Below, in pieces: positions 11,160-52,737 of a stretch of 64,000 bases of DNA. A program made the translations under genes and the position numbers. This stretch comes from an uncultured virus (IMG/VR IMGVR_UViG_3300010391_000003) (lineage: Duplodnaviria > Heunggongvirae > Uroviricota > Caudoviricetes). The number at the start of each line of letters is the position of its first letter. Position 1 is the stretch's first letter. The DNA is taken from the IMG/VR virus record IMGVR_UViG_3300010391_000003; one strand, written 5' to 3'. The notes under the pieces were generated by a model. The model was not told where the DNA came from. It saw only the letters and a list, made by a program, of their open reading frames with translations, and did not search any database.

Positions 11160-11362
11160 ATATTTATATTAATACGAGGACTTTATGTTATACAAGGTAG
11201 AATATTTTCAAATTCCTGAAACATATGTAAGAATATCAATGAAAACAAAGGAATTTGATAAACTTCTCAATGAAGAATTTAGCGAAGTAAGTATAATTTA
11301 TGTATATAAAGGTTCAAGATATTTATTTATGGATGATGATTTTGTTATTGAGGAGTTAATAG

Positions 11363-12566: not shown

Positions 12567-13180
12567 TTAAGGACAGTTAAGACAAAGTTAATGTAGAACT
12601 TTTGCATTAACTACTAATTTTCGATATGTATTAGTATATTTTATCTAAAAAGTTAAAGAATTAATGTTTTTATAAAGACATAGATGTATATTAGTATATA
12701 ATACACAGAAAGATTTAAATACCATAACCTATATAGTAAATACTATTATGACAAAGAATAAAGATGGAACAGAAACAATACATTATTGTGCCTGTGGACA
12801 GTCTGTAAGACTCAGAAAGAAAGACAATATTTGGGTTCATTATGGATGGCACAGAGAGTTTGAGACATATGCGATGTTCTTAGAAAGAACAAATCATCCT
12901 GTAAAAAATATAACAAGTCAGATATGGAGAAAGTCTGTTTATCCATTTGAAAATGGGGTGAGAATAGTATGAATAGTGATAACAAAAGACTAATATTATT
13001 ATTTGTTTCAATAATGGGACTGGTAATATTTGCATTTGGTCTTGTATCAATTGGTATGTCACCTGAATTTTCCCAATATTTTTATGCAAATGTTGCTGTT
13101 TCGAAGGCAAATTGGAAAGAATTGATAATGATTATTGTTGGTTATGTAATAATAAGAATTTCTGCAGAAATGGAATAATT

Positions 13181-14209
13181 ATGTTAGATAAATTACTTAC
13201 TCGAGACGAATTTCGTAAAAGAGTTTTTGAAAGAGATAATCATCGTTGTATTATGGTTCTTCCAGAACATAGAGGAAGATGCACAAAATCTGCAGTAGAT
13301 GCTCATCATATTATAGAACGAAGATTGTGGGAAGATCCTTCTGAATTTGGAGGATATTTTATTAATAACGGTGCAAGTCTTTGTGAAGAACATCATATAG
13401 CTGCAGAAAAGAATTTCTATCCACCACAATATCTTTGGCAAATTATTGGAATTAAAGAACCAATTAGACCAAAATTATTTGTCAATGATTTGGATTATAA
13501 TAAGTGGGGGTTTCCATTCAAAATGCCGAAAAGATACCAAATTAAATATCCTTCAACACCATATCTTCCTTTCAGTCCTGGATGGAAAGAACCAAATTCT
13601 GATAAAGATGATAATGCATATTTAGAAAGTGTTGATTGTCTTCTCAATACTCCTCTTGTTACAACCATAAAAATGGATGGTTCTAATATACAGATGACCA
13701 AAAATCATATTGCAGCAAGAAATGGCACTTGTGCAATACATAAGAGTTTTGACTTTCTTAAAGCACTTCATGCACAAAAATATGGTATGTTGATACCAGA
13801 TGGCATTGAGGTTTTTGGAGAATGGCTTTATGCAAAACATAGCATTCATTATGATAGAGATATATCCCTTAATAACTATCTTCAGATTTTCGGAGTTTAC
13901 GACATGAATAGAAGGCTTTGGGGCTCATGGGACAATGTTGAAAACATGGCAAAAATTCTTGGTGTTCCAACAACACCAGTTCTAAAATTTGTTTCATACG
14001 AAAAGGATTGGCAATTAATTTTTGATGTTACAAATATGGCTCAATCTGTTATTAAAAGAGGACATGAAGGAATTGTTATTAGAATTGTATATCCATTTCA
14101 CTATGGACAATTTGAAGATCATATTGCGAAATATGTAAGACCAAATCATGTCCAAACGGATCAACATTGGACAGAACAGCAAACTGTAAAAAATATATTA
14201 AAAAATTAG
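13181..14209 (+). CDS. RNA ligase family protein with N-terminal HNH domain
   Basis: N-terminal VFERDNHRC...DAHHII...NGASLCEEHH; ligase motifs KYPSTPYLPFSPG, KMDGSN, VFGEW, EGIVIR, AKYVRPNHVQTD.HW; ATG 13181. Confidence 0.85.
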   Translation: MLDKLLTRDEFRKRVFERDNHRCIMVLPEHRGRCTKSAVDAHHIIERRLWEDPSEFGGYFINNGASLCEEHHIAAEKNFYPPQYLWQIIGIKEPIRPKLFVNDLDYNKWGFPFKMPKRYQIKYPSTPYLPFSPGWKEPNSDKDDNAYLESVDCLLNTPLVTTIKMDGSNIQMTKNHIAARNGTCAIHKSFDFLKALHAQKYGMLIPDGIEVFGEWLYAKHSIHYDRDISLNNYLQIFGVYDMNRRLWGSWDNVENMAKILGVPTTPVLKFVSYEKDWQLIFDVTNMAQSVIKRGHEGIVIRIVYPFHYGQFEDHIAKYVRPNHVQTDQHWTEQQTVKNILKN

Positions 14210-14606
14210 AAAACTATATATGATAAGACTTTCATACAAGTTATTAAGAGGACAATAAATATGAGAAAAGAAGAAATAAAAGAGATGATAAAAGACTATT
14301 TGGAATCCAATGAAGGTAATATGGATATGCATGGTCTTACACCAGATGGAGCAGCAGACACAGAAGCCATGGCTGAAAAAATAACAGAAAAGGTGTGGGA
14401 ATATGTAATATATGAACATTATATGAAAGTACTGGATAGAAGTTTCTCTCGAATGAGGTAATTATGAAAATAGAAGAAAAAATCTTATCATTTTATGTAA
14501 ATAACCATGAATTAATGCCAATGACAGAATTCCAGAAAGGATATCTTAGAGCCTTAACAGATATAGTGGTAAAGAAAGATCCTATGCAAATTATAGAGGT
14601 TTAATT

Positions 14607-16694: not shown

Positions 16695-16739
16695 TTTATA
16701 TACTATAACTTTCATTATTAGTTATAGAGGCAATAATAT
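16695..16739 (+). promoter_or_regulatory. TATA promoter with palindromic operator CTATAACT-N9-AGTTATAG (copy 1)
   Basis: 44/45 nt identical to 19913-19957; directly precedes the CCA gene start. Confidence 0.75.
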
Positions 16740-18125
16740 ATGAAAGAACTAAGCAACAACATAAGAGAGGCATTCTGGGGATATGAACTATTTTATGTTG
16801 GAGGCTATGTCAGAGACAGGGTAATGGAAGATATAATTGGAAAGGAGATAATATCGAAAGATGTCGACTTTGCAACTAATGCAACTCCAAGTGGTCTTAT
16901 TACTCTGTGCAAATCATGGGGTCTTAACTACAGATATACAAAGAATAGTATTGCTCATGGAACAATAACAATAGAAGGTTATGAATTTACAACATACAGA
17001 AAGGATGTTTCCTGCGACGGACATAATGCAATCGTAGAATGGGCTGAAACTATTGAAGAAGATCTTTCAAGAAGAGATATAACTATTAATGCAATGGCTT
17101 TTAACTTCTGGACTGGAGAACTTGTAGATCCATTCAATGGAGTTAATGATATAAAGAATAAAATAATCAGAGCAGTAGGTAATCCAGATGAACGTCTTAA
17201 AGAAGATACTCTTAGAGCACTCAGAGCAGTCAGATTTGCAAATAAATTTGGATTCGAAATAGAAGATGAACTTCTTATAGCAATAAAAAATACAGATATT
17301 TCTAATATTTCTGTCGAAAGAATTCGGGAAGAATTTATGAAAATACTGGAAACAAGAAGTGATAATTATATTCTTAGTATTCTATATAAAGTAATTCCCG
17401 AATTTGGTGTTCTTGATAAACTTGATGGTGGAGATAAACATGCTGAAACTGTAAATGTTCATTCTATATGGACTATGAGAAGTATGATGGAAGCTTCAGA
17501 TAAGCCTCTCAATGCACTTATAGCACTACTTCATGATATCGGTAAAGGATTTACCTTTGACGACCCAGATAGAAAATTCAAGGGGCACGAAGATATTGGC
17601 GCAGAGAAAATAAAGAGGATAATGGAAAGGTTTAATACATTCTCTAATGATGAAATTGATTATGCATATGTAATGGTAAAAAATCACATGAGATGGCATT
17701 TCTTCGATAAAAAATTCGAATCTCCAACTGATAAAACTCTCAGAAAAGCAATAAGAGATCTTCCCGACAAATTTGATAAGCAGGAAATGATGACAGATCT
17801 GATTATTCTTACGTGGGCAGATTGCCAAGCTAATCTTCTTAATAAACCTGAATCTCTCGAAGATTATGTAGAAAGAAAAGGAATCTATAAAAGAGCACTG
17901 GAAATGATAGATGAAAAACCAGAAGTAAAAATAGGTTCTGGGCTCGAACTTAATGGTAATGATCTTATCGAAATGGGATTTAAACCTTCCCCTCTCTTTA
18001 ATACAATCCTGACCGATGTTCTGAATAAAGTCATTGGAGAAGATGAAAGTATGAAGCTGGATAATAATAAGGAAATGCTAAAGAAATATGTAATAAAGAA
18101 TTATGTCAACAAAGAAAGAAGATAA
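16740..18125 (+). CDS. cca: Class II (bacterial-type) CCA-adding enzyme / tRNA nucleotidyltransferase with HD domain
   Basis: VGGYVRD, DVDFAT, EEDLSRRDITINAMA, EDTLRALRAVRF (EDxxR), HD motif LLHDIGK. Confidence 0.9.
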   Translation: MKELSNNIREAFWGYELFYVGGYVRDRVMEDIIGKEIISKDVDFATNATPSGLITLCKSWGLNYRYTKNSIAHGTITIEGYEFTTYRKDVSCDGHNAIVEWAETIEEDLSRRDITINAMAFNFWTGELVDPFNGVNDIKNKIIRAVGNPDERLKEDTLRALRAVRFANKFGFEIEDELLIAIKNTDISNISVERIREEFMKILETRSDNYILSILYKVIPEFGVLDKLDGGDKHAETVNVHSIWTMRSMMEASDKPLNALIALLHDIGKGFTFDDPDRKFKGHEDIGAEKIKRIMERFNTFSNDEIDYAYVMVKNHMRWHFFDKKFESPTDKTLRKAIRDLPDKFDKQEMMTDLIILTWADCQANLLNKPESLEDYVERKGIYKRALEMIDEKPEVKIGSGLELNGNDLIEMGFKPSPLFNTILTDVLNKVIGEDESMKLDNNKEMLKKYVIKNYVNKERR

Positions 18126-19912: not shown

Positions 19913-19957
19913 TTTATATACTATAACTTTCATTATTAGTTATAGAGTCAATAATAT
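19913..19957 (+). promoter_or_regulatory. TATA promoter with palindromic operator (copy 2)
   Basis: Near-identical to 16695-16739; precedes ORF 19956. Confidence 0.75.
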
Positions 19958-25228: not shown

Positions 25229-26791
25229 ATGATAAGTAAACAAAAGGATATAAATAACAATAAATTAATTAATAATAGTGATACTTACGATATGTTAAAA
25301 ATAGCACAATCTTTAGCTGACTATGACATTATTTATAATAATCTTCATAAAGAAGACATCGCCAAACCTTTAGAAATTATTAATCAAATTATATATGGTG
25401 AAAATCTTAAGGTTTTAATTAAGATACCTTCAAATTCCGTTCACTTAGTTTATCTCGATCCTCCATTCTTCAGTGGAAGTAATTATCAGGTGGAAAAGAA
25501 GAATGGTAAACATAAACAAATAATAAAGTTTGAAGATGAATGGAGTTGTGATGAAAATGAATATGTTTTAAGAATGTATCAACGTCTTAAAGAACTTCAA
25601 CGTGTTTTAAAACCAGACGGAATAATTTGTTTACATTGTGATAGACACGCTGTTGATTGGCTAAAAATAATAATGGATAAAATATTTGGTTTAAAAAATT
25701 ATCAAACAAGAATAGTCTGGCAAAAAATGTCAGGTTCTTCATTCGGTTCGAAGTCTAACAAAATATATCCAGAAGTATCAGATTATATTTTAATTTATAG
25801 CAAAGGAAATAGGTATATTTATAACACACAATATACACCATATGAAAAAGAATATGAGTCTAAATTCAAAAATCTAGATAATGATCCCAAAGGTAAATAT
25901 ATCTGGCAATATTTTTTTAATAAAGATGAAATTCCATCTGATAGAATTTTAAAATTAAATGAATTGTCAGAAATAAAATTTTTAAGTCGTACAGAAAGTG
26001 GAACATATAAATATAAACGATATTGGAATGATACTACAGATGCAGACGGAAAATTTCAAAGAGGAAATCGAAGAGGAAAACCGTTATCAAATGTTTGGAA
26101 TGATATCTTTAGATTAACAAGTTCAAATGAAGGTCAAGATTATCCAACTCAAAAACCAGAAGCATTGTTAGAAAGAATTATATTATCATTTTCAAATCCA
26201 ACAAATATAATTCTGGATCCTTTCTGTGGTGGAGGAACATCTGTAGCAATGGCTATAAAACATAAACGTAATTTTATTGGAATAGACCAAAGTCCAACTG
26301 CGACAACTATGTCTGCTAATAGAGTTTCAAAATATGATACAACTCCAATAATTCCGACCAGAGAACAAACTGAAATGGATGACGTAAATCTTATGACTCC
26401 GTGGATATTCCAAGAATGGGGAATAGATAAAGTTAATGGAATAACTACCAATCCAAATCCTGGTAAACCTTCTGGTGGAGACGATGGAATAGATGGATAT
26501 GTAAATATTCCTCAGCCGAAAGGATTCGATATACATTTCGAAGAAGAAAAAGATAAAATTATAAGAAATAAGTGGCATGGTGTTCCAATATCTGTTGAAA
26601 AGAGAATTGTTTCTGAAAATGAGGTAGATTCATTTAGAGGAGCGATGAAGAGACACGATAGGAAACTTGGAATATTTATCTCTTTGGGTTATACTCATAC
26701 TAAAGAAAAATTTGTAAAACACGATGATATGGAAATACTTCTCTTGACAGCAGAAGACTTATGTAAAGTCGATAAATATAATTTACAATAA
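25229..26791 (+). CDS. N6A/N4C DNA methyltransferase (beta class) fused to a C-terminal Mrr-like nuclease domain
   Basis: YLDPPF, YPTQKPEALLERII, LDPFCGGGT; C-terminal GGDDGIDG...ISVEK...GIFIS. Confidence 0.85.
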   Translation: MISKQKDINNNKLINNSDTYDMLKIAQSLADYDIIYNNLHKEDIAKPLEIINQIIYGENLKVLIKIPSNSVHLVYLDPPFFSGSNYQVEKKNGKHKQIIKFEDEWSCDENEYVLRMYQRLKELQRVLKPDGIICLHCDRHAVDWLKIIMDKIFGLKNYQTRIVWQKMSGSSFGSKSNKIYPEVSDYILIYSKGNRYIYNTQYTPYEKEYESKFKNLDNDPKGKYIWQYFFNKDEIPSDRILKLNELSEIKFLSRTESGTYKYKRYWNDTTDADGKFQRGNRRGKPLSNVWNDIFRLTSSNEGQDYPTQKPEALLERIILSFSNPTNIILDPFCGGGTSVAMAIKHKRNFIGIDQSPTATTMSANRVSKYDTTPIIPTREQTEMDDVNLMTPWIFQEWGIDKVNGITTNPNPGKPSGGDDGIDGYVNIPQPKGFDIHFEEEKDKIIRNKWHGVPISVEKRIVSENEVDSFRGAMKRHDRKLGIFISLGYTHTKEKFVKHDDMEILLLTAEDLCKVDKYNLQ

Positions 26792-26799
26792 TTTATATA

Positions 26800-27996
26800 A
26801 TGACAGAAAATAAAATCACAAAAAATCAGTGTATAACAATCATATTAATTTTATTTTTTGCTCTGATCCTGAGATTATATCTCTCTCAATTCGGGGGATA
26901 TGAACTTGATGTAAATTGGTTTAAGAATTGGAGTCAAGAAGTTTATAGTAATGGATTTTCTAACTTTTATCAAAATACAAATTCAGATTATCCACCATTT
27001 TATATTTATATCTTATGGGTAATAGGAGCAATAAATAGTCTTACATCTACAAATATAAATCCTTTAATCTTATTTAAATTACCTTCATTTTTTGCAGATA
27101 TTGCAACGTCTTTGTTAATATTTATTATTGTAATTAAATATACATCATATAAAACAGCCTTAATTTCTGTAATATTTTATGCTTTTAATCCTGCAATAAT
27201 TTATAACTCATCAATATGGGGACAAGTAGATTCAATATATACATTCTTATTACTTTTTGCTATTTACGAATTTATATCAGAAAAACCAACAAATTCAGCT
27301 ATATTTTTTGCATTATCAATATTAACAAAACCACAAAGTCTTGTTCTTTTTCCTCTATTTTTAATCTTAGGTTTTAAAAAGTATAAACTCAATGTATTAA
27401 TTAGATCTTCAATAATTTCTTTTGTTGTATTTATACTTTTTGCATTACCTTTTTATGTAAATACCTCAATTTTAGAATTATATAGATTATATACATCATC
27501 ATATATTCAATATCCTTTTACATCATTAAATGCATTTAATTTCTGGGCATTGGTTGGGATGTTTAAACCTGATAACACTATATTTTTATTTTTGACGTAT
27601 AGAATATGGGGATACATACTATTCAGTATTTTCTTTATTTATATAACATACTTTACAATAAAAAATAACAATAACACAATTTTATACTATTCTTCAGTAC
27701 TATTATTTTTAGGATTTTTTATGTTATTTACAAGAATTCACGAAAGATATATGTTCCCAATATTTTCATTTCTTTCTATTGTAATAATATTTGATAGACG
27801 TCTGTATTATGTATATATATTATCTACAATAACATTTTTGGCTAATTTATATCTGGTCTTTGAAGAAATAAAGATGGGGTATGCAATACCATTTAGTATG
27901 TTTATAATTTCTTATTCTATTATTATGAATATAGTAATATTTATATATTTAAATTACTGTTTTATTACATATAATATAGAGGAAAGTAAAATATGA
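26800..27996 (+). CDS. GT-C polytopic membrane glycosyltransferase (mannosyl/glucosyltransferase-like)
   Basis: DYPP, FNPA...SSIWGQVD, KPQ, NAFNFW and HERY motifs; about 10 TM helices. Confidence 0.8.
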   Translation: MTENKITKNQCITIILILFFALILRLYLSQFGGYELDVNWFKNWSQEVYSNGFSNFYQNTNSDYPPFYIYILWVIGAINSLTSTNINPLILFKLPSFFADIATSLLIFIIVIKYTSYKTALISVIFYAFNPAIIYNSSIWGQVDSIYTFLLLFAIYEFISEKPTNSAIFFALSILTKPQSLVLFPLFLILGFKKYKLNVLIRSSIISFVVFILFALPFYVNTSILELYRLYTSSYIQYPFTSLNAFNFWALVGMFKPDNTIFLFLTYRIWGYILFSIFFIYITYFTIKNNNNTILYYSSVLLFLGFFMLFTRIHERYMFPIFSFLSIVIIFDRRLYYVYILSTITFLANLYLVFEEIKMGYAIPFSMFIISYSIIMNIVIFIYLNYCFITYNIEESKI

Positions 27997-29153
27997 CAAA
28001 CTACTTTTTAAATCTAACAGATGATAATATAATTAGAATCTCATTTGCATATAATCCCGAATCAGTTGAATCTGTAAAATCTTTTTCAAATAGAAGTTGG
28101 AACAAAGAGCTTTCTTGTTGGGAAATACCTTTAAGTGTGTGTAATGAGATTCCAAAGGTTTTAGGAGTATATATACCACAAGATATTAAGGAAAGATATG
28201 AATATATTTATAATATAAAACCAATTAAATATGATGAAACTCTTATACGACCAGAAATAAAACCATATAATTTTCAAATTTTAGGAATTGAATTTGGTGC
28301 TTCAAATAAAAATTTTCTTCTTGCAGATGAAGTAGGATTGGGAAAAACATTACAGGCTATTGGTACTGCTCTTCATTTGAATTGTAAGAAAATTATTGTT
28401 GTTTGTCCTTCTTCTGTAAAAGGTCAGTGGCAAAGAGAAATAAATAAATTTACTGATAAAAGTTCTATCATTATAGATGGATCTCAAAAACAACGAGAAC
28501 AACAATATGAAAAAGATGTTATGTTTTATATAGTAAATTATGAATTAATTCTTAGAGATATATCAATCATAAATAAAAGACTTTGGGACATGGTTATAGC
28601 TGATGAGGTTTCAAGAATTAAGAATTGGAAATCAAAGACAAAGACTGCTCTTACAAGAATTAAAACAAATTTTAAAGTTGGTGTTTCAGCAACACCAATA
28701 GAGAACAATATACAAGAACTTCATTCTATTGTTTCTTGGATAAATCCTAATATTTTCGGATCATACTGGAATTTTGTAAATGAATACTGTTATTTCTGCA
28801 ATAATTCATATGGTGGATATCAAGTTACTGGAATAAAGGATGCTAAAAAACTTCACGAAACACTAAAATCTGTAATGATTAGAAGAAAGAAAGCAGAAGT
28901 ATTTAAGGAGTTGCCAGAAATAATCCACAATGAATATTATGTGCCTTTGACACCAACACAAAAACAGATGTATGAAGAAGTCAAAGGAAATATTATGAAT
29001 CTGGTACAAAGAGGAGATATGTCAAACAATATGCTTAATGAGATTATGTATTTGAGAGAAATATGTAATAGTCCTCGACTTCTAAATCCTGACATTATGG
29101 AAAATGGAAAGGTTGATGAGATTGTAGAAATTATTAAACAATTTACAGATTAG
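27993..29153 (+). CDS. SNF2-family helicase, N-terminal part (HARP-like domain + ATPase lobe 1)
   Basis: FAYNPE...RSWNK...WEIP (HARP-like), LLADEVGLGKT, VVCPSS, IADEVSRIKN, ATPIEN, MIRRKK, LREICNSP; ends just before motif IV. Confidence 0.9.
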   Translation: MTNYFLNLTDDNIIRISFAYNPESVESVKSFSNRSWNKELSCWEIPLSVCNEIPKVLGVYIPQDIKERYEYIYNIKPIKYDETLIRPEIKPYNFQILGIEFGASNKNFLLADEVGLGKTLQAIGTALHLNCKKIIVVCPSSVKGQWQREINKFTDKSSIIIDGSQKQREQQYEKDVMFYIVNYELILRDISIINKRLWDMVIADEVSRIKNWKSKTKTALTRIKTNFKVGVSATPIENNIQELHSIVSWINPNIFGSYWNFVNEYCYFCNNSYGGYQVTGIKDAKKLHETLKSVMIRRKKAEVFKELPEIIHNEYYVPLTPTQKQMYEEVKGNIMNLVQRGDMSNNMLNEIMYLREICNSPRLLNPDIMENGKVDEIVEIIKQFTD

Positions 29154-29155
29154 AT

Positions 29156-29725
29156 ATGAATAAATTAAAACTTTCAGATGATTCATTTTATCCATTAATT
29201 CCATCTATTTGTGAATGTGGAAAATGCAATAGAATAATTTTTAAAAGAGGAATAAAATTTATAAGTGGACATAATGCAAATAGAAAAGGAATAAAACAAA
29301 ATCAAGAATGGAAAATTAATAAGTCAAAGATGATGAAGGGAAAACATAATTCACAAAAAACTGAATGGAAGAAGGGTAAAGTTGCATGGAATAAAGGACT
29401 TCATCCATCAATAGAAACAATAGAAAAATTATCTAAATCTCATATAATAGATGGAAGATCTTTCGAACCATATTCTATCGAATTTAATCTTATATTAAAA
29501 GAATCTATTCGTCTTCGTGATTCTTATACATGTCAAATCTGTCACAAAACTCAAGTAGAAAATTTTAAAAAAATTAAAAGAAAATTGTGTATTCATCATG
29601 TAAATTATAATAAAAAAGATAATAGATTAAATAATCTTATTAGTTTATGTGGTTTATGTCATTTAAAAACAAACCACTTTCGTAAATACTACGAACAATA
29701 TTTTGCTTTAATTTTGGATAAGTAA
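29156..29725 (+). CDS. HNH homing endonuclease inserted within the SNF2 helicase
   Basis: IPSICECGKC...FISGH, AWNKG, RDSYTCQIC, IHHVNYNK, LCGLCHLKTN. Confidence 0.9.
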   Translation: MNKLKLSDDSFYPLIPSICECGKCNRIIFKRGIKFISGHNANRKGIKQNQEWKINKSKMMKGKHNSQKTEWKKGKVAWNKGLHPSIETIEKLSKSHIIDGRSFEPYSIEFNLILKESIRLRDSYTCQICHKTQVENFKKIKRKLCIHHVNYNKKDNRLNNLISLCGLCHLKTNHFRKYYEQYFALILDK

Positions 29726-29726
29726 T

Positions 29727-30185
29727 ATGAGAAAAATAATATTATTTACACAATGGAAAAAATTTGGTGATCTTCTATGTGAAGCCTTCAAAGAAAATCA
29801 ATGGAATTATATTTTTGTTCATGGAGGTTTAACTTTTGAAGAAAGAGAATCTTCACTTCAAGAATTTGAACATGATGAAAATATTAAAATATTAATAACA
29901 ACTGATTGTTTATCATATGGATGTAATCTACAGTTTGCAGATGTTTTAATCCATTGTGACTTATTGTGGAATCCACAAAAAATGATACAAAGGGAAGGAA
30001 GAGTTCATAGAATAGGTCAAAAAAATGTTGTAAATGTTATAACAGTTATGACAGAAGGAACAATAGAAGAAAAAGTTTATTTATTATTAAAATCAAAGTC
30101 TGATTTATTTAATCAGATTATAGAAGATGAAAATAGTTTAAAATTTAATATGGATGTTATAAGAAAGATATTCAAAGATAAATAG
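29727..30185 (+). CDS. SNF2-family helicase, C-terminal part (HELICc)
   Basis: KIILFTQW (motif IV), GCNLQFAD, WNP...QREGRVHRIGQ, TIEEK. Confidence 0.9.
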   Translation: MRKIILFTQWKKFGDLLCEAFKENQWNYIFVHGGLTFEERESSLQEFEHDENIKILITTDCLSYGCNLQFADVLIHCDLLWNPQKMIQREGRVHRIGQKNVVNVITVMTEGTIEEKVYLLLKSKSDLFNQIIEDENSLKFNMDVIRKIFKDK

Positions 30186-30972
30186 ATAATTATTATTTAT
30201 TAAAAATATGTTTATATACTATTAAATTGAATATATGTCTATTGTAAATAGACAGTGATATTATGAATAAAAAAGAAATTAACGAACAAATTTCTGGATT
30301 GGAACAATACATAATCTGTCAAAATGAATCAACAGATATCATAAATGAACTAAGATCAAATAATGGGGAGATTCATTATGATAACTGAAGAAAGGTTAAA
30401 AGAGTCACAAGAAGATATATTATTTTTTGAGAAGAAGAGTAACAAACTATTATCTGACATTTTTAAGAACTCAAACTGGTATCCAGAATGTCACAACGAT
30501 CCCAATAAAACGAAATGCGACCATTGTATGGACTGCTGGGCAATAAATTGCAATCGTTCAAATTGTGACAGAGTGGGAAGATGTATGTGTCGAGGAACAG
30601 ATTGTATTTGCCTTGGAAGAAGCTGATCTATAGAAAGATATATAAACTAATAGTTACTATTTAAGATATATGAAAATAATAAATATTCTTACAGGGAGTG
30701 CTTTAATATTAATAGGAATAGCAATAGGATATGTAGATTATTATATAGTGTCTTTATTTTATGAGGTTTCTCTTTGGTTATCAGGACTTGTGAATGCACC
30801 TGGAGTGGTTGCAGTATTAATAACATTAATATTAATGTTTTTCTTTATTACAATACTTGTATTAATATTAATTGTTGCAATAATTTTAATCGTTGTTGGG
30901 TTATTAATGATAATTTCAAATTAAACAATCAATAACATAATTATTAAATATGTTTATTTAACTTATTTTATA

Positions 30973-30988
30973 GAAAGATTTATATCTT
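30973..30988 (+). promoter_or_regulatory. BRE/TATA promoter for the 63-nt RNA
   Basis: GAAAGATTTATATCTT; TATA box ends about 24 nt before G31010; no ORF starts at that position. Confidence 0.6.
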
Positions 30989-31009
30989 AATCAGTAGTTA
31001 TTTGTATTT

Positions 31010-31072
31010 GCTTGCGAGAGAAGTAAAATCTGTCCTCGTATTATTGCCTAAAACTATTTTTGCCTCGCAAGC
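31010..31072 (+). ncRNA. Candidate 63-nt small RNA (copy B) with anti-Shine-Dalgarno loop
   Basis: GCTTGCGAG/CTCGCAAGC 9-bp closing stem, own TATA box, followed by TCTTTTT; loop contains GTCCTCGTATTA. Confidence 0.6.
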
Positions 31073-31768
31073 TCTTTTTGTATAATTATGTTTTAATATA
31101 GGAAACCTTTATATTCTTATAAGTCTATTATAAAATAGGAGATAAAAATTATGAATCAATGTATTATTGAGGGTTGTCCAAACGAAGCAGAACTTATTGC
31201 TAAGTCTGGAGGGAGATTATATTTTTCGTGTAAAAAACATAAGAAAGAAGTCGGACAAATAGTTGTGTCTGAACATACAAAAGAAGAGTTGAGAAAAGTT
31301 AAGGTCATCGGTGATATTCTTTATCCAAATGAAAAGACACCAGATTAGATGAAATTATAAAATATAATATATGTCAACAGAGCCTAAATTCATACAAACA
31401 AATCTATTTGGTTCTTCTATTATTCCTACAATAGTTCCAAAGAAAATAAGACCTGTGTTATCTGAGGATGAAAAACATAGAAGAAGGGAGAAAGAAGAAG
31501 CACATATTGCTTGGAAACTTTTAAAATCAAATAGATTTAGAGAACTTTTAACAGAAAGACAAAAATTTCTTTTACAAAAATATTATGGCATAATATTATG
31601 AAAATTATCATAAAGATTTTAAAATTAAACAAATATCTTTATAAGTAAATGAGAATATTTGTGTGTTATACTCACTTCTTCTTTTTAGGAGAATGAATTA
31701 TTATGTGGCTTTTAACCACATCTTTTGTAAAGAAAAATAAATAAAAATGTACGAGGTAATCGATAAAT

Positions 31769-32788: not shown

Positions 32789-33155
32789 ATATGTAAGAGA
32801 ATTAAGGAGAAGATAAATATGGAAATGACAGTAGGCTTGTTTGGAATAATACTAGTTTCAACAGTGGTTGTTGGAATGGTTATTGTTCTTTATAAAATTA
32901 GTAAGAAATAAGTATTAAAATTTGTCAGATCGATAAACTCTTATTGCTCAGAAACTGTTGGGTTACTCAACAGCCATGGTACACGCAATGGGAGGTCGTA
33001 AATTCTGACAAATTTTTTAAATTAATTAATAGCATGATCATAGATTGCAGCACATGTAATATAAAAAATTCATGTAAAGAATATTTTAACGGACTACAAT
33101 GTTATTATAGATACACAATAGAACAAATAAATATAAATAAATACGAGGAAAAATA

Positions 33156-35416: not shown

Positions 35417-35466
35417 ATACGAAAGATTTATATAATATTAAAACATTTATGTTATAATGAGGAATT

Positions 35467-36081
35467 ATGAACACAAATAATATTATAATTTTAATAATTT
35501 TTTCAATATTATTATCAGGTTGTTTAGACTCGAGAAGTACAACAAACACGTCAGAAATAACTGTTTCTGAGACTATGATATCTGAACATACACCAGAGCC
35601 AACTCCATATGTTTCTAATATTGATGAAAGATGGGTGAGAGACTTTATCGATATTGTTAATAGTGAAAGATTTACAGAATACACAAAATTGTCAAACAAA
35701 ATGTGGAGTTCTATGGCGTTAAATGCCATTGCAAGAGAAAGATTCAACAAAATGTCGAAGAGACCATATACAAGTCATTTTGAAGCAGATATGGATATGT
35801 ATAACACTGGAGAAGAAATATTATTTCCTGATGGATTTACACCTAAAGAATATGTAAGTCAGCTTAAAACAAAAGCACCCATACATTGGAATGGTCTCAT
35901 AGATCCAAAGATTAAAAATTATGGGTTCTATTTTGAAGAAGGAAATACATTAAGTATAATACAACCATGTTCTATAACTGAAATAACTGATATAAATGTT
36001 GATGAAAAAGAATATTTAAAGTCATTTGGATGCGAAACTGTAGAAACAAGAGCAACATGGTTGGTAATAGAATTAAGTTAG
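35467..36081 (+). CDS. Lipoprotein with CAP/SCP-like domain
   Basis: Lipobox LLSGC; VNSER...L..IA..R...M....SH...GE.I...HW..L. Confidence 0.55.
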   Translation: MNTNNIIILIIFSILLSGCLDSRSTTNTSEITVSETMISEHTPEPTPYVSNIDERWVRDFIDIVNSERFTEYTKLSNKMWSSMALNAIARERFNKMSKRPYTSHFEADMDMYNTGEEILFPDGFTPKEYVSQLKTKAPIHWNGLIDPKIKNYGFYFEEGNTLSIIQPCSITEITDINVDEKEYLKSFGCETVETRATWLVIELS

Positions 36082-37232: not shown

Positions 37233-37235
37233 ATA

Positions 37236-37250
37236 GAAAACTATATATAC
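37236..37250 (+). promoter_or_regulatory. BRE/TATA promoter of the ~220-nt ncRNA
   Basis: GAAAACTATATATAC; TATA box ends about 23 nt before G37272. Confidence 0.65.
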
Positions 37251-37271
37251 TTTTAGGATATATTAGGTATT

Positions 37272-37493
37272 GAGGACATAATCCTATGTCTGACTGTCTG
37301 TAATTTAAGGAATCGGATGGTTTTGGCAAACCTCCCCGAAGAATGAATACAGAGCAGATCTATAAGCTTCAAGTGCGATCTACTGAGATGCCTATGAGTC
37401 CCAAGTGGCAATGGCTAAAAACTCAATAGAACAATAGTCTTGAAGACGATCTGACAGGATATGAAACAGGTAGGAAGCCAAATTATGTCCCTC
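37272..37493 (+). ncRNA. Structured ~220-nt non-coding RNA of unknown family
   Basis: About 42% GC (hand count 93/222) in an AT-rich genome; no ORF; 5'/3' closing stem and at least six nested helices; own promoter and U-tract. Confidence 0.75.
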
Positions 37494-37503
37494 TTTTTCT
37501 TTT
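37494..37503 (+). terminator. Archaeal oligo-T terminator
   Basis: TTTTTCTTTT immediately after the closing stem. Confidence 0.6.
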
Positions 37504-38966
37504 ATACTAATTAGGTAATATTTATATACTATTAAAGACAATTAGTATTAGGAGATAATTATGAATTTTATAGTAAAAATGTTAAAAGACGGAAGATTAA
37601 AAGTTGTGGGTAGTAAAAAATCAAAAATTTTAGATATGCCAGCTTCTGATAGAGTAATTGGAAGTGTTTTGTATGTAACAGACTTGCAGAAACTTCAGGC
37701 AGGAGAAGAAGTTATTGTTTCTGGAGTAGCTGCACTTGAATTAGAAATATATGTAGGTTATTAATTAAAAGAGGTAAATATGAAAACAAGTGAAATTGGA
37801 GAGCTATTGAGTTCAGATTCCACAAGTAAGAGGGGAGATGTATATACTGTAAGAAAAACTTATTATTATAAACACGGTTATGATGCAATGCAATATGCAA
37901 GCAAAGTAAAAAGTGTTTTTCCTGATGCTATAATTATTGATTATGGTGATCATTGGGCTCCATTTCGTGGTGGAGACTCTGTTGAAAGGGGATCACATTG
38001 GTATGTAAAATTTAAATTACCAAGTGGTTCAGTTCCTCGACATCAAAATCCAATAGCTATGGGAGGTTATTCTGTACAATCAGGACTTCCAAATAATTTG
38101 AGGTTATAATATGTTATTCTCAGATCTTAAATTATTAATGGATGAAGACATTGATAGAATTAAATTAGATATAAAAACAGGAAGAAGACAACTAATGTAT
38201 ATTAATTTGTCAAAATTAGAAATGAAACATAGAATGTTTCCAAGACTTGCACAAATAGTTCCACGTGAAGGAGACTATGGAATATTTGAAATATCAGGAA
38301 ATATTGTAAAATTCACTGGAGAACTTGATTCTAAAAAAGTAAATTATGTAAGAAGTTTACAAACTCCAGACTTCATGAGGTTATAACTGTGGGAAGATTT
38401 ATATATAAAGGAGTAGATATTGATGAGAGTCGTGGAAAGTATATGGTATGTACAAATAAAGATCTTTTAAAACTAGGTCTTTGTACTCATAAGACACTTC
38501 AAAAAGGACATCCAGGATATGTTTCATTAAAAAGATTAATAAAACTTATAGATGAAAAAAGATCTAAATTATATTAAGTATGAATTTCAAATTAATACAA
38601 AAGGATTATAAAACTGAAAGATACGAATCAGATCTTGGACAAGGATTATCAGCAGTAGTAAAAATGCAATATCATACACATCTTAAATATTGGGATGTTT
38701 TCTATAAAATAACATATCCACCATACTATCAAACAGATCACATTTTTGGTCAGGCTTATATTGATAGTCGTAAAGAAGCCAGAAAAATTGCACAACAAGT
38801 AATGGATAATGCAAGACCTGATGATTGGAAAACTAAATTATCAGAATTTTTTCAAAAGAATATTAGAGAATCTATAACTCCTAATTTTATTAAAGTGTAG
38901 CCAAATATTTATATACTATTACTTTCATATTGTATTTTGTTAGAATTTAAACAAGGACAGATAAAT

Positions 38967-39740: not shown

Positions 39741-42046
39741 ACAGACTCAAACTACATGACACAATTATAGATTATCTAACAACTAGTGAAGCACAAGTAC
39801 TATTGTCTAATCAAGACTATAGATCAATATCATATAATCTCTCAGAAAAATTGTTGGATGTGATTATTAAAGATAAAAAATAATTTAGTACAAACATTTA
39901 TATAACATAACTTTCATTATATCTTTTGTGATAATATGAGCAAAATATGTATCCATGAATTTGAACAAAGAGATTCGGAAAATCCAGATTACTCTCAGAC
40001 TGAATATGACTTATATGCAAAACTCGATATGTCTATAAGAAAAAATCATGTGATTGGAAACTTCGAGATTTCAAGAATCAGCTCTGGTAAAAAGGTCTAT
40101 GAAGGTAGTCTTGAACAAATGGTTGCTATTGCAAATAATCTCGAAGGAGAAGAAAATACAGAAATTGGTTGTGACAATCTTATTTGTAAAAACAAGAGGA
40201 AATAAATATGGATGCTAAGACATATTCTGAAATATCAAGACATTTAAGTGAGATAGAAACAATCTTAACAAGAAGCTCAAACAGAAACGAGAAAATGTAT
40301 CCAAATGAATATAAACCAGTAAGGTTAAGACTATCAGAAATAAATTCAAAGATAAATAGTATTAGTGAGTTTTAGGAAATAGATATGGATAAAAGTAAAA
40401 TATCATTTACACTATTTTTGACACTAATAGTGACTGTATCAACGATTTCATATTTTAATATAAATGATATTTTACAAATCATAACATTATTTTTAATATA
40501 CTTTATCACAACTTATTTATGGTTTTGGTTTATGTCTATGATTGTTCCAAGATCGAGAATAACCAAAGATTCTGATGAAATACTTCATCCTGTGACACAA
40601 ATAGAGAATACACTTCATGTAATAAATATCAAGAAACACTACGGAAAGGAATATAATCCCAAATTATTAGAAAGGTGTAGTTGTGGTTCTACATTGTTTA
40701 GAATATATAATGAGGATACTTCTAAGGGTACATATATTCAGTTTATTTGTGTAAAATGTAATACAAAAGCTACAGGACTTGAGTTTAATTGGAAAGAAGT
40801 TAAAGAAGATATATCTGTGACAACTTGAGAAGATAAATTAAACGAATTAAAAACATAGATAGATTTAAATACTTACAAAAACATACTAATTGTTATGAAT
40901 GATATAATAGATAAAAAGGTCAAATTATATTGTAATGATTGTAAGACAGAATTAACAATAAGAGGAGAAGTATTTACACATTATAATCATGATGTTGTAG
41001 AAATAAACCAAGGAACAATTTCAAGAAGAATGAAGGAAATTTAAGAACTTCATAAGAAGGAGGAAAAATAATGATAGTTGATTATTGGTATGACTCACAC
41101 ACAAAGTCGTGGGTCGTTCAAAGAAAGAACAATAGAGGAGACCAGATAGGTAGTGCTGATTATGTTTATTCTAAAGAAGAAGCTTTAAAATTAGTAAAAG
41201 AATATGAAGAAGAATTTGATCGTGAATATAGGGAAAGAAAATCATTTCCAGAATTTAAAGATTTACCAAAGGTTTTTATTGGTGATGTTGAATTAAATCC
41301 ACGAGATTTTAGAATAGGAAAATTGAAGAAATCGAGAAGAGTCACAAAGTTTTCAAGATATGGAAGATAAACAATGTTTAGATGTCCAAGATGTGGAGCA
41401 CAAGTAGATCCAAGACAAGAATTTTGTGGAATGTGTGGAAAAAAGTTGAGATGATTACGAGGAAAATGTTTAATATAAATGGTTCGACTGTAAAATATTC
41501 AATAATTGATAATCTTTTAGATTTTGACAGAAGAATAAACAGATATGGACATGGACTCTGGTATTATACACCAAGAGAATATAAAGAAGAATCTATGGAT
41601 TTAAAATATGGAATATAAAACATGTCTTATAAATTTATAAAAATAAAACAGAGGATAGATATATGACTCCAAAAGAACGAATTAAAATGTATGAAGAAAC
41701 ATTAGAAAGATTACATAAAAAAAGAAGTAATGTAGAACTTTCAATAAAAAGATTAGATGAAAGAATAAAACACAATAAAGATGCAATCAATAATCTTGAA
41801 ATTAAAAACTCCAAAATAGAATATAACAGATCAATGAATCCATCAAAGAGGACACAATGTTAGATGAAAACTCACCAATAATTAAAGATATAGAATTACA
41901 TAAGAAAAGAATTGATAAAATACATGAAGAAAATAGAAATTTAAATATGAAATTAAAATGTTTGGCTCAAGAAGAAATCGATGAGTTTGTGAAAGTAATG
42001 ACACTTATTGACGATCATTGTAATAAATTAGAAAATCAGGAGAAAC

Positions 42047-47592: not shown

Positions 47593-47772
47593 CTTTTTTC
47601 GTATTATTAGTGTTGAGGACATTTTTATGATAACAGTTTTTGTAGAATACGAACACGATGATGAATTTAATACTGCAAAAGAAATAAAGTATATTTTAAA
47701 AGAAAGACTCGAAAAAAGCAGATATGTAAATGATATCGATGTTCTTGTAACAGATATGGAAGGAAACTAAAT

Positions 47773-50774: not shown

Positions 50775-51578
50775 ATGACTTTAGATTTAATATTATCACC
50801 AAGTGGAATAACAAAATATATACAATGTCCATATTCATTCAAACTAAGATATATAAACAAGATAAAACCAGTTATAGAAGATGATTCTGCATTGAGATTG
50901 GGGAAATCTGTTCATGCTGTTCTTGAGAATTTTTATAAGAATGTAGATCTTAACACAGTATTACCAGAAACAGATTTTGTTAATTCAATGAAAAAAACTG
51001 CTCAGACACACTGGGATAAAAGTATAGATGCAAAAAAACGAGAAGAAATAAATAACTCTATGTTTCTTTGGCTTCAATTTGAAATACAAAGATTTAAAAA
51101 ATATAAAGAACAGAATAAATTAGACAGATTTTGTCCTGTTGCAACAGAAGAAGATATCACCGATTATCAAAATAAACTTCGGGCAATTATAGATAAGAGG
51201 TCTTTGGGTATGACAGGAACAATGTATGCTTTGGATTATAAAACCGACAAAAATCTTCCTGCTCTTAGAAATTTTAAAGGAAATCTAAGAGAAATTGATG
51301 ATAAGTATAAAATTCAAAGTGCATTAAACGCAATGGTTCTAAAATCTCAAGGAATAAAGTTGGATAATTTCTATTTCCAGTTTATTCGTTATCCTGACAA
51401 GCTATTATCTGTTCCACTAACTTCTGAATTGTTTAATGAAATTGAGGAGCTTATAAAAAAGATTCGAGAAGCTGAAGAATATCCAAAAAATGATAAGTCA
51501 TGTTTCTACTGCGACATGAAGTTGCATTGTAAGACAGAGTCAAGTAGTGTACATTGTATGTCTGATAATGTATTATAG
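50775..51578 (+). CDS. Cas4/RecB-like PD-(D/E)xK exonuclease
   Basis: LSPS.I..Y..CP, G..VH..LE, IID...DYKT, Q, C.YC....HC. Confidence 0.85.
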   Translation: MTLDLILSPSGITKYIQCPYSFKLRYINKIKPVIEDDSALRLGKSVHAVLENFYKNVDLNTVLPETDFVNSMKKTAQTHWDKSIDAKKREEINNSMFLWLQFEIQRFKKYKEQNKLDRFCPVATEEDITDYQNKLRAIIDKRSLGMTGTMYALDYKTDKNLPALRNFKGNLREIDDKYKIQSALNAMVLKSQGIKLDNFYFQFIRYPDKLLSVPLTSELFNEIEELIKKIREAEEYPKNDKSCFYCDMKLHCKTESSSVHCMSDNVL

Positions 51579-52737
51579 ATTAAGAATACTAACCAAAACC
51601 TATATATCCTTCAACGTCAATATAGTAATTAGATGATAAATATGTGGAAAGACAAATGTAATAAATGTGGAAGAAATATCTTCAATGGTATCCCTGAGGA
51701 ACACAGAGATCATATAGATACTTATATAAAGGATATGGAAAAAGAGGGAATGTTTATAGGGCACAATACAAAAACAGTGGGGACATGGGGACATATAAAC
51801 GAAGTCCCAATAAAACCAATTTGTTGTGTATGTAAAAAAGAAGAATATGAAATAAAAAATGCAAAGGACACAAAGAAAGCATTTATAAAGATAAAAAAAT
51901 CTCTAAAGAAGGTCTTTGTTTGTCCAATTTGTCTGGATAGTACACACAGAGGATACAATGAAAAGGTATTTATGACTACAATTAGAACAGTAATTGAAAA
52001 TCATATCAAAGAAAAACATAATCTTTCTGAATATGAGTCTATAATTTCAGAACTAAAGAATTATTAGAAACACAATATTGATTTATGAAAGAGGGTGTCG
52101 GAAGATATAGAATTCCATTTTTCAGGAAAGATCCAAAAAGTGAGTCAACATTTCAAAGAAATTTATTGACGTTTTAAAGTTAATTCAAGTTAATGTATAG
52201 TTAATGACAAATTTTATCTTAACTAATATGTACAGACAATTTAGTTAATGAATTAAGGTTTACATCTAACATTACTAATAATATACTATATTCATAACTT
52301 TAAAATTGAATGTTGTTTTAATAAACAATTAATTTAAAAACATAATGGTAAACAATTATCTTTATATCCTATACATTAATACTTAGTAATAGAGGACATA
52401 AAGTATGAAAGATAATAATTTAACAAACAATAATGTCGAACAGTTAATAGAAAAGTTAAATTCTGGTTGGGAAAGAATGTTTCCGGACAATCCAGAACTC
52501 GAAAGTGTGTTTATGAATTAAGAGGAATAAAAATGAACAATAAGATAAGAGGGATAATATTGATGTTACCAATGACTATAACAATAATATTAACACTAAG
52601 ATATTTATATCTAAGTGATATTATATTGTTTTATACTATGATACAATTATTTGGTATGTTGTTTGGGTTTATGATTTTAGGGATATTATCTTTTATCGGT
52701 GTAAAAGAATTGGTAAAATAATGGAGAATTAAAAAAT

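Follow-up and report, generated by a model that had tools for sequence, protein, structure and literature searches.

The window analysed here, a 64,000-nucleotide (nt) stretch of DNA from an uncultured virus of the Caudoviricetes (IMG/VR IMGVR_UViG_3300010391_000003), contains a small-RNA unit at 31010–31079 on its + strand. It is highly probable that this unit is a real, conserved and autonomous small-RNA gene; the best argument for its reality is that relatives conserve it. We propose that the virus-encoded RNA acts in trans on a set of viral genes, pairing with their leaders and probably preventing translation. For this whole chain we estimate a probability of about one half. The step in which the UGUCCUC sequence of the loop pairs with GAGGACA leaders has, judging from the sequences, somewhat better than an even chance of being correct. 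A trans-acting small RNA had been suggested at this place by a sequence-only reading of the same stretch. The small-RNA gene and the complementarity of its loop to leaders hold up, whereas the argument drawn from a 12-nt match does not; the actual conserved pair is UGUCCUC/GAGGACA, which had been mentioned only in passing.

In the proposed mechanism, a promoter of archaeal type, composed of a B recognition element (BRE) and a TATA box (30971–30986), would direct initiation at G31010, where the stem begins, and an oligo-U tract past the stem would end the transcript, yielding an RNA of about 65–70 nt. The stem would hold a loop of about 45 nt open and leave CUGUCCUC unpaired. This octamer would then pair with GAGGACA(G), a virus-specific extension of the Shine-Dalgarno (SD) core GAGG that would often form the first bases of short-leader mRNAs. 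Since pairing with the leader would cover the ribosome-binding site (RBS), it would most probably lower translation of the viral gene set, which in relatives comprises replication, recombination and anti-defence genes. Transcription, pairing in vivo and the sign of the effect are what we infer from the observations that follow.

The element lies in a 226-nt gap (30925–31150) between open reading frames (ORFs) 30670–30924 and 31151–31348. The gap contains, in this order, TAGAAAGATTTATATC (30971–30986), a 23-nt spacer, GCTTGCGAG (31010–31018), a 45-nt loop, CTCGCAAGC (31064–31072) and TCTTTTT. GCTTGCGAG is complementary to CTCGCAAGC, together forming a stem of 9 base pairs (bp), and no further copy of either is found in the window. 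The TATA box TTTATATC (30979–30986) ends 23 nt 5' of the stem, and a run of five T residues occupies 31075–31079. The 9-bp stem, the upstream TATA and the T-tract pointed out in the sequence-only reading are thus all present. The features of the unit are as follows.

30971..30986, + strand: promoter TAGAAAGATTTATATC, BRE-like AGAAAG followed by the TATA box TTTATATC, with one mismatch to the motif TAGAAAGATTTAWATA
31010..31079, + strand: predicted small RNA, a 63-nt closed stem-loop plus U-tract, its putative start set by the TATA spacing and its putative end by T5
31010..31018, + strand: 5' arm of the closing stem, GCUUGCGAG, partner of 31064–31072
31030..31037, + strand: conserved loop octamer CUGUCCUC, the anti-SD or anti-leader sequence, identical in L027, L030 and C35 and predicted to be unpaired
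31038..31049, + strand: lineage-specific part of the loop, GUAUUAUUGCCU, invariant in three close relatives and absent from the distant relatives C35 and G408
31064..31072, + strand: 3' arm of the closing stem, CUCGCAAGC, partner of 31010–31018
31075..31079, + strand: T5 tract, putative oligo-U terminator, 3' of the stem

The RNA (+) strand folds with −18.7 kcal/mol versus −10.4 ± 2.4 kcal/mol in shuffled sequences (z −3.5; none of 200 shuffles as good). The complementary strand folds equally well (z −3.6), so that the choice of strand cannot rest on energy alone. Known classes of RNA were looked for at the site. ARAGORN called no tRNA or tmRNA at the element, and Rfam 15 gave no match at gathering score across the whole window, the only match near the site being sau-5971 with 13 bits against a cut-off of 90. 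Archaeal C/D-box small RNAs (sRNAs) carry a C box (RUGAUGA) and a D box (CUGA) near their paired ends; on direct reading, both UGAUGA and CUGA are absent from the 63-nt sequence. A coding reading was rejected, the RNA strand being devoid of ATG and its sole frame, with a TTG start, being out of register between relatives.

The promoter motif is a recurrent one. With up to three mismatches, TAGAAAGATTTAWATA is matched 37 times in the window versus 15.2 ± 4.0 times in shuffles, with 34 matches on the + strand and 3 on the − strand. The distance from the start of the motif to the first G of the stem (G31010) is 39 nt. In the SD-less genes 30670, 40895 and 61560 the distance from motif start to ATG is likewise exactly 39 nt, so that in these leaderless genes about 30 nt separate the first base from the TATA box. 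A TATA box about 30 nt before the transcript start is the archaeal spacing. In all five genomes that carry the RNA or a candidate for it, TATA stands 30–31 nt before the predicted small-RNA start. A reading of the promoter as bacterial sigma-70 was rejected because such sites are at shuffle level (106 versus 106.7). The same architecture is found elsewhere in the window. The leaderless genes 30670, 40895 and 61560 have their ATG at the predicted start. Many other mRNAs, for example at 31108–31151 and 35427–35467, are predicted to begin at their own SD sequence; their leaders are 8–16 nt long, and TATA stands 30–31 nt upstream of GGAGA or GAGGA. A promoter/leader cassette, ACTATAACTTTCATTATTAGTTATAGAG, is repeated in near-identical form at 16700–16740 (ORF 16740) and 19916–19956 (ORF 19956), and a looser copy at 39900–39936 precedes ORF 39936.

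Four relatives were compared with the window. L027 and L030, from JGI metagenomes, are close. The other two are distant: C35 is a 102.6-kb contig of a 1.7-Mb metagenome-assembled genome (MAG; G001) titled Nitrosotalea sp., and G408 is a 68-kb IMG/VR genome rated 96% complete. In L027 and L030, promoter, closing stem and T-tract are all retained, as is the loop core with its 23 + 12 invariant nt (AAATCTGTCCTCGTATTATTGCC and AAAACTATTTTT), and the proteins flanking the RNA in these close relatives are just 54–60% identical. The octamer CUGUCCUC is the same in the window, L027, L030 and C35, in all of which its predicted probability of being unpaired is 0.74–0.91. It reads GUGUCCUC in G408, so that UGUCCUC is common to all five. 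Direct reading and single-sequence folding show that in the L030 stem one C:G pair has become U:A and both arms have been lengthened together. In L027 an A:U pair has become G:U, making two G:U pairs in all, which correspond to A-C mismatches on the other strand; its loop holds an additional 8-bp hairpin. The T-tract is T6 in L027, T7 in L030, TTATTTT in C35 and TTTTGCTTTTT in G408.

The fourth copy, in C35 (locus L036), was detected with a covariance model for which the window and L027 supplied the sequences (22.4 bits, E 0.005–0.013 over 84–231 kb). It reads TTTATATA, 22 nt, GCUUGCG...UCCAAAAA-CUGUCCUCAAC-UUUUUUGGA-CGCAAGC and a U-rich tail. The SNF2 helicase gene immediately precedes it and is encoded on the other strand. 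In G408 a candidate for a fifth copy was spotted by eye, reading TTTAAATA, 23 nt, GAGUCGAG...GUGUCCUCAAC...CUCGACUUUUGCUUUUU. This copy occupies a gap of 160 nt, runs antisense to the adjacent genes and folds with z −3.5 (0 of 200 shuffles as good). Its stem differs in sequence from that of the window yet still pairs. The C35 and G408 units share a TATA placed 30–31 nt before the closed stem, a loop reading UGUCCUCAAC and a tail rich in U. In each case the unit is about 2 kb upstream of a 339-amino-acid (aa) gene and opposite in strand to the genes around it. The unit thus has the appearance of an independent transcript, with a consensus promoter at a fixed 39 nt, a U-tract after the stem and, in C35 and G408, an orientation independent of the neighbouring genes. 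The claim of an autonomous small-RNA gene made in the sequence-only reading is upheld by these signals and by their retention in four other genomes. Pattern scans outside this group returned nothing related. In IMG/VR, the stem alone gave 16 loci, the loop core none, and stem, octamer and 3' arm together 34, all unrelated; stem plus octamer gave at least 119 loci, and those listed are all unrelated. The matches are mostly G+C-rich and have no homologous loop, TATA or T-tract. Scans of IMG/VR with single proteins found no relatives via ORF 31769 or ORF 33156, and via SNF2 only distant loci, which gave no match to the RNA. In 401 genomes of the phylum of G001, the RNA pattern matched only G001 itself and one spurious site.

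The complement of the conserved loop, GAGGACA(G), is an extended SD motif enriched in the start regions of these viruses. The 16S ribosomal RNA tail of the host family is GGAUCACCUCCU at 4 of 4 loci and therefore pairs with the GAGG part only. In C35 (28–60 kb), ACAG follows GAGG 6 times against 0.31 expected, and start-type GAGG sites continue with ACA in 10 of 23 cases in G408 and 10 of 54 in C35. The arrangement GAGGACAG-N1-9-ATG occurs nine times in the 1.7-Mb MAG, six of them in C35, and GAGGAC precedes none of 64 ORFs on the other MAG contigs. Six GAGGTGA sites of C35, by contrast, agree with the canonical 16S tail, which argues for two leader classes; a host 16S with a non-canonical anti-SD ending in UGUCCUCC is conceivable. 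A TATA box lies 29–32 nt upstream of GAGGACA at 3 of 7 sites in the window (background 2.1%), 5 of 21 in C35 (1.2%) and 4 of 13 in G408 (1.1%). This spacing predicts that the motif forms the first bases of those transcripts. The 23-nt spacers between TATA and GAGGACA are not conserved, and the upstream elements are lineage-specific. Two observations in C35 concern the same motif. A 298-aa protein matching the Gabija anti-defence protein Gad1 (Pfam PF25705, E 1e-43) is encoded at L194:14910–15803 (C35 54910–55803) behind the leader GAGGACAT. In an intergenic hairpin at about 66808–66845, TTGAGGAC pairs with GTCCTCA located 16 nt downstream, forming a cis version of leader/anti-leader pairing.

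The window contains nine start regions with complements of 7–12 nt to the loop (predicted duplexes −12 to −19 kcal/mol). Predicted duplexes overall range from −12 to −20 kcal/mol versus −5.6 to −5.9 kcal/mol for the 16S tail at the same sites. The individual sites are listed below, all as predicted pairing partners.

11170..11181, + strand: TAATACGAGGAC, RBS of ORF 11185, exact 12-nt complement; duplex −19.0 kcal/mol, length at chance level
14242..14254, + strand: TATTAAGAGGACA, RBS of ORF 14261, candidate; GAGGACA at 14248, duplex −12.3 kcal/mol
16728..16738, + strand: AGGCAATAATA, RBS of the CCA-adding enzyme gene 16740, 11-nt complement; duplex −15.7 kcal/mol
33140..33149, + strand: AATACGAGGA, RBS of ORF 33156, 10-nt complement; duplex −14.8 kcal/mol
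37272..37278, + strand: GAGGACA, predicted 5' end of a non-coding RNA of about 225 nt, candidate; TATA 30 nt upstream, duplex −15.5 kcal/mol
41848..41854, + strand: GAGGACA, RBS of ORF 41857, candidate; duplex −12.0 kcal/mol
47615..47621, + strand: GAGGACA, predicted 5' end of the mRNA of ORF 47627, candidate; TATA 30 nt upstream, duplex −12.9 kcal/mol
52392..52398, + strand: GAGGACA, predicted 5' end of the mRNA of ORF 52405, candidate; TATA 31 nt upstream, duplex −16.8 kcal/mol

The matches named in the sequence-only reading are where it placed them. Its loop 12-mer GTCCTCGTATTA (31032–43) is the exact reverse complement of 11170–81, and 14242–14253 corresponds to the same 12-mer with two mismatches. 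The 10-nt match at 33140–49 is present, as is TACGAGG at 31750, before ORF 31769. GAGGACA is found at the other RBSs it cited (14248, 47615 and 52392) and at the 5' end of the RNA of about 225 nt (37272). The lineage-specific segment GUAUUAUUGCCU contributes to the 12-, 11- and 10-nt complements at 11170, 16728 and 33140.

The placement of complements in start regions is modestly above chance. Complements of at least 10 nt number three in start regions versus 0.49 expected (P = 0.033), and those of at least 11 nt number two versus 0.13 (P = 0.011). The expectation that complementary sites would be enriched at starts relative to shuffles is modestly borne out for placement (P 0.011–0.033), not for the 12-nt length, which is at chance. 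A contiguous complement of at least 7 nt is present at 7 of 33 start-type GAGG sites in the window versus 7 of 134 GAGG sites elsewhere (Fisher 0.008); when the non-cognate loop of C35 is used instead, the window sites give 3 of 33 versus 11 of 134, which is not significant. Covariation is seen at motif position 8. In C35, where the RNA has C, this position is G in seven sites, A in seven, T in six and C in none. In G408, where the RNA has G, it is C in five and T in seven, i.e. pyrimidine in 12 of 12 (binomial 4.5e-5). The switch between C35 and G408, G against C, has a Fisher p of 0.0013. U opposite G pairs only in RNA. The complementarity between the exposed loop and the ribosome-binding leaders of the virus, put forward in the sequence-only reading, is supported, and loop and leaders covary across genomes at one position.

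Two side observations concern complementarity to the small RNA at sites of other kinds. A second promoter-to-U-tract unit without an ORF occupies 37234–37510 of the window, with its motif starting at 37234 and a predicted start at G37272. The resulting RNA of about 225 nt is richer in G+C, and its 5' end, GAGGACAUAAU, which is also complementary to the loop of the small RNA, pairs with the 3' end, AUUAUGUCC(C)UC, right before UUUUUCUUUU; its best Rfam score is 16 bits, which is no match. Finally, a promoter-motif match inside the PD-(D/E)XK nuclease gene (51085–51137) predicts a start at 51123, and of GACAGATTTTGTCCT, which follows 51123, the first 10 nt are complementary to AAAAUCUGUC of the small RNA.

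A number of results weigh against pairing with leaders as the function of the RNA. The 12-nt match, which runs through CGUAUUA and was the main exhibit of the sequence-only reading, fails as evidence: its length is at chance level, the loop part it uses is not conserved in distant relatives and it shows no covariation. A 12-nt complement somewhere is found for 35.5% of 1000 shuffled loops, and the sense strand of the loop also has one 12-nt match, at 2733. The shuffle test on duplex energies is weak and confounded by A/U runs, 3–5 of 200 CCUC-keeping shuffles doing as well. The C35 sites match their own loop (13 of 43 versus 27 of 198, p = 0.01) no better than they match that of the window (11 of 43 versus 12 of 199, p = 0.00045). 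The motif signal is weakest in the window itself: GAGGACA occurs 7 times versus 3.3 expected, about 2-fold, only 2 of 33 start-type GAGG sites continue with ACA, and position 8 is T in five sites, A in one and C in one, unable to pair with the C of the loop. The base before GAGG shows no cross-genome covariation (C at −1 in 5 of 33 sites in the window versus 12 of 77 in the others). Complements at homologous genes shift or vanish among relatives, L027 with the same loop having none at its homologue of ORF 33156. GAGGACA at +1 could also be an initiator or promoter element, and sites sharing a promoter class are not independent counts. Other points bear on the RNA family, which has five members in three lineages. 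RNAalifold on a MAFFT alignment counts no compensatory pairs, with the 3' arm of L030 misaligned there. Model R1 finds no match at E ≤ 1 in G001 (1.7 Mb), so that the C35 match is not significant genome-wide. The G408 copy was recovered by neither covariance model, R1 giving a partial match of 12.8 bits in G408 and R2 none. The sole listed sequencing run containing the stretch is a sediment metagenome of DNA, none being recorded as RNA, and the domain of the host is deduced rather than observed.

Four other explanations were weighed against a pairing RNA that blocks translation. An unlikely one is that a conserved structured RNA acts through a protein or other partner, as decoy or scaffold, and that the loop-leader match is a by-product, due to the same factor or to GAGGACA being an initiator. 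The stem sequence GCUUGCG/CGCAAGC is itself kept between the window and C35 beyond what pairing requires, which hints at sequence-specific recognition, and both the position of GAGGACA at +1 of a promoter class and the unpaired position 8 of the window targets agree with this explanation. However, the stem sequence of G408 is wholly different, and no conserved protein gene accompanies the RNA; the 65-aa Zn-ribbon ORF adjacent to it in the window is unmatched at the C35 locus. Moreover, position 8 goes from G to C/U as the loop base goes from C to G, and U opposite G fits RNA pairing only. It is very unlikely that there is no trans-acting RNA at all and that the element is a terminator or attenuator of the upstream gene, or a DNA element (an origin or an operator inverted repeat) of the replication module. 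A GC-rich inverted repeat with a T-tract does come right after ORF 30670–30924, it is located among replication genes and its two strands fold equally well. Nevertheless, the loop measures 45 nt, and a scan for consensus terminators (loops of 3–8 nt) does not list the element. A consensus promoter belonging to the element precedes it at constant spacing, and in C35 and G408 the unit runs antisense to the genes on either side. Its G:U pairs exist on the proposed RNA strand only, and its loop is more conserved than its arms.

The same pairing might also have a positive or marking role, either protecting 5' ends from 5'-3' decay or acting as a ribosome bridge that replaces the anti-SD, which we regard as improbable. 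The motif stands at the extreme 5' end of predicted transcripts, its predicted pairing with the RNA is far stronger than with the 16S tail, and its use at 10 of 23 start-type GAGG sites in G408 amounts to many genes for a pure repressor. A review of archaeal sRNAs describes one that stabilises some targets and represses another (PMC5867862). Yet the pairing would hide GAGG, which is all that the 16S tail recognises in the leader, and there is no sign of a ribosome-binding feature in the RNA. Equally doubtful is that the RNA is a virus-encoded translation specificity factor, whereby a private, 5'-terminal GAGGACA leader is poorly read by the host 16S and the RNA decides on its use or protection. 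Repression through leader pairing thus remains the reading that we prefer.

Trans-acting sRNAs with C/U-rich anti-SD loops are known from bacteria and prophages, such as RNAIII and RsaE of Staphylococcus aureus and the prophage-encoded DicF. As far as their features go, the likeness lies in a CCUC-type loop on a hairpin, a short seed over the SD and a multi-target regulon; the viral RNA differs in its archaeal-type promoter architecture and has no Rfam family match. Phage T4 shuts off early mRNAs via their SD regions by means of the nuclease RegB and the repressor protein RegA. There too, a virus factor targets the virus's own mRNA class via a shared RBS sequence, but the T4 factors are proteins, whereas here an RNA is proposed. 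Anti-SD stems acting in cis are similar in that a (Y)GUCC(C)UC strand masks GAGGACA. In those the pairing is intramolecular, as in the window RNA of about 225 nt at 37272, which closes its ends in this way, and in the C35 hairpin, whereas the pairing proposed here is in trans. The closest cellular counterparts are sRNA154 (loop 2) and sRNA41 of Methanosarcina mazei, archaeal sRNAs that mask RBSs (PMC5867862). As is proposed for the viral RNA, they are intergenic, separately transcribed stem-loops whose exposed anti-RBS loop lets them repress several mRNAs at the level of translation. They are host genes answering nitrogen supply (PMC5867862), whereas the RNA described here is encoded by a virus and is unrelated to them in sequence or by Rfam. 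The predicted targets of the viral RNA differ in sharing a fixed leader from the first base of the transcript. The RBS-masking type of mechanism is thus already known from archaeal cells (PMC5867862). In the literature searched, judged from listings and abstracts, no regulatory small RNA of an archaeal virus is described.

The genome that carries the element has a G+C content of 26–35%, with almost all genes on the + strand. Its proteins include two RNA ligases, a CCA-adding enzyme, dCTP and dCMP deaminases, an anaerobic ribonucleotide reductase, an RFC-type clamp loader, an XPF-type nuclease, a DNA methylase, an SNF2 helicase and many HNH endonucleases. At the DNA level, the window matches none of 50,697 records of deposited phages, and homologues of ORF 31769 were found at 46–88% identity, about 25 of them, beyond the relatives compared here, in Logan, ENA and NCBI contigs. 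The genes of C35 include an HK97/encapsulin-like capsid protein and tail fibres, which identifies the group as head-tailed viruses. Promoter architecture, RFC-, XPF- and NucS-type proteins and the MAG binning together make an archaeal host likely. The G+C content of C35 is 40–43% in the structural parts and 29–35% in the replication part. It contains a direct repeat of 687 bp, 98.7% identical, at 25564–26250 and 94379–95065, inside two tail-fibre-like Peptidase_S74 genes. The idea that C35 is a provirus with host flanks, suggested by this repeat and the higher-GC ends, was rejected, as the repeat lies in tail-fibre genes and the flanks encode the HK97/encapsulin-like capsid protein. In the window, two ORFs encode the SNF2 helicase, an N-terminal one (27993–29153) and a C-terminal one (29727–30185), and an HNH endonuclease ORF (29156–29725) separates them; in C35 the helicase is a single 532-aa ORF, and in L027 the two halves adjoin without an HNH gene between them. 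HNH/NUMOD3 genes are unusually common in the window (8573, 29156, 44717, 47773 and 62441), and ORF 13112–14209 fuses an HNH endonuclease-like N-terminus (residues ~32–111) to an RNA ligase domain.

If the proposal is correct, a group of head-tailed viruses that includes one member binned with an ammonia-oxidising archaeon would possess a conserved RNA with an identifiable regulon, defined by a leader shared at the transcript start. The proposal makes a prediction open to mutational testing, namely that loop UGUCCUC and leader GAGGACA are partners, for which position 8 offers a compensatory pair already present in nature. The layout of the mRNAs is itself unusual, since the predicted first bases of the transcripts are the SD sequence. 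Should the RNA instead prove to be a translation specificity factor, it would be a virus-owned counterpart of the SD/anti-SD code in an archaeal virus.

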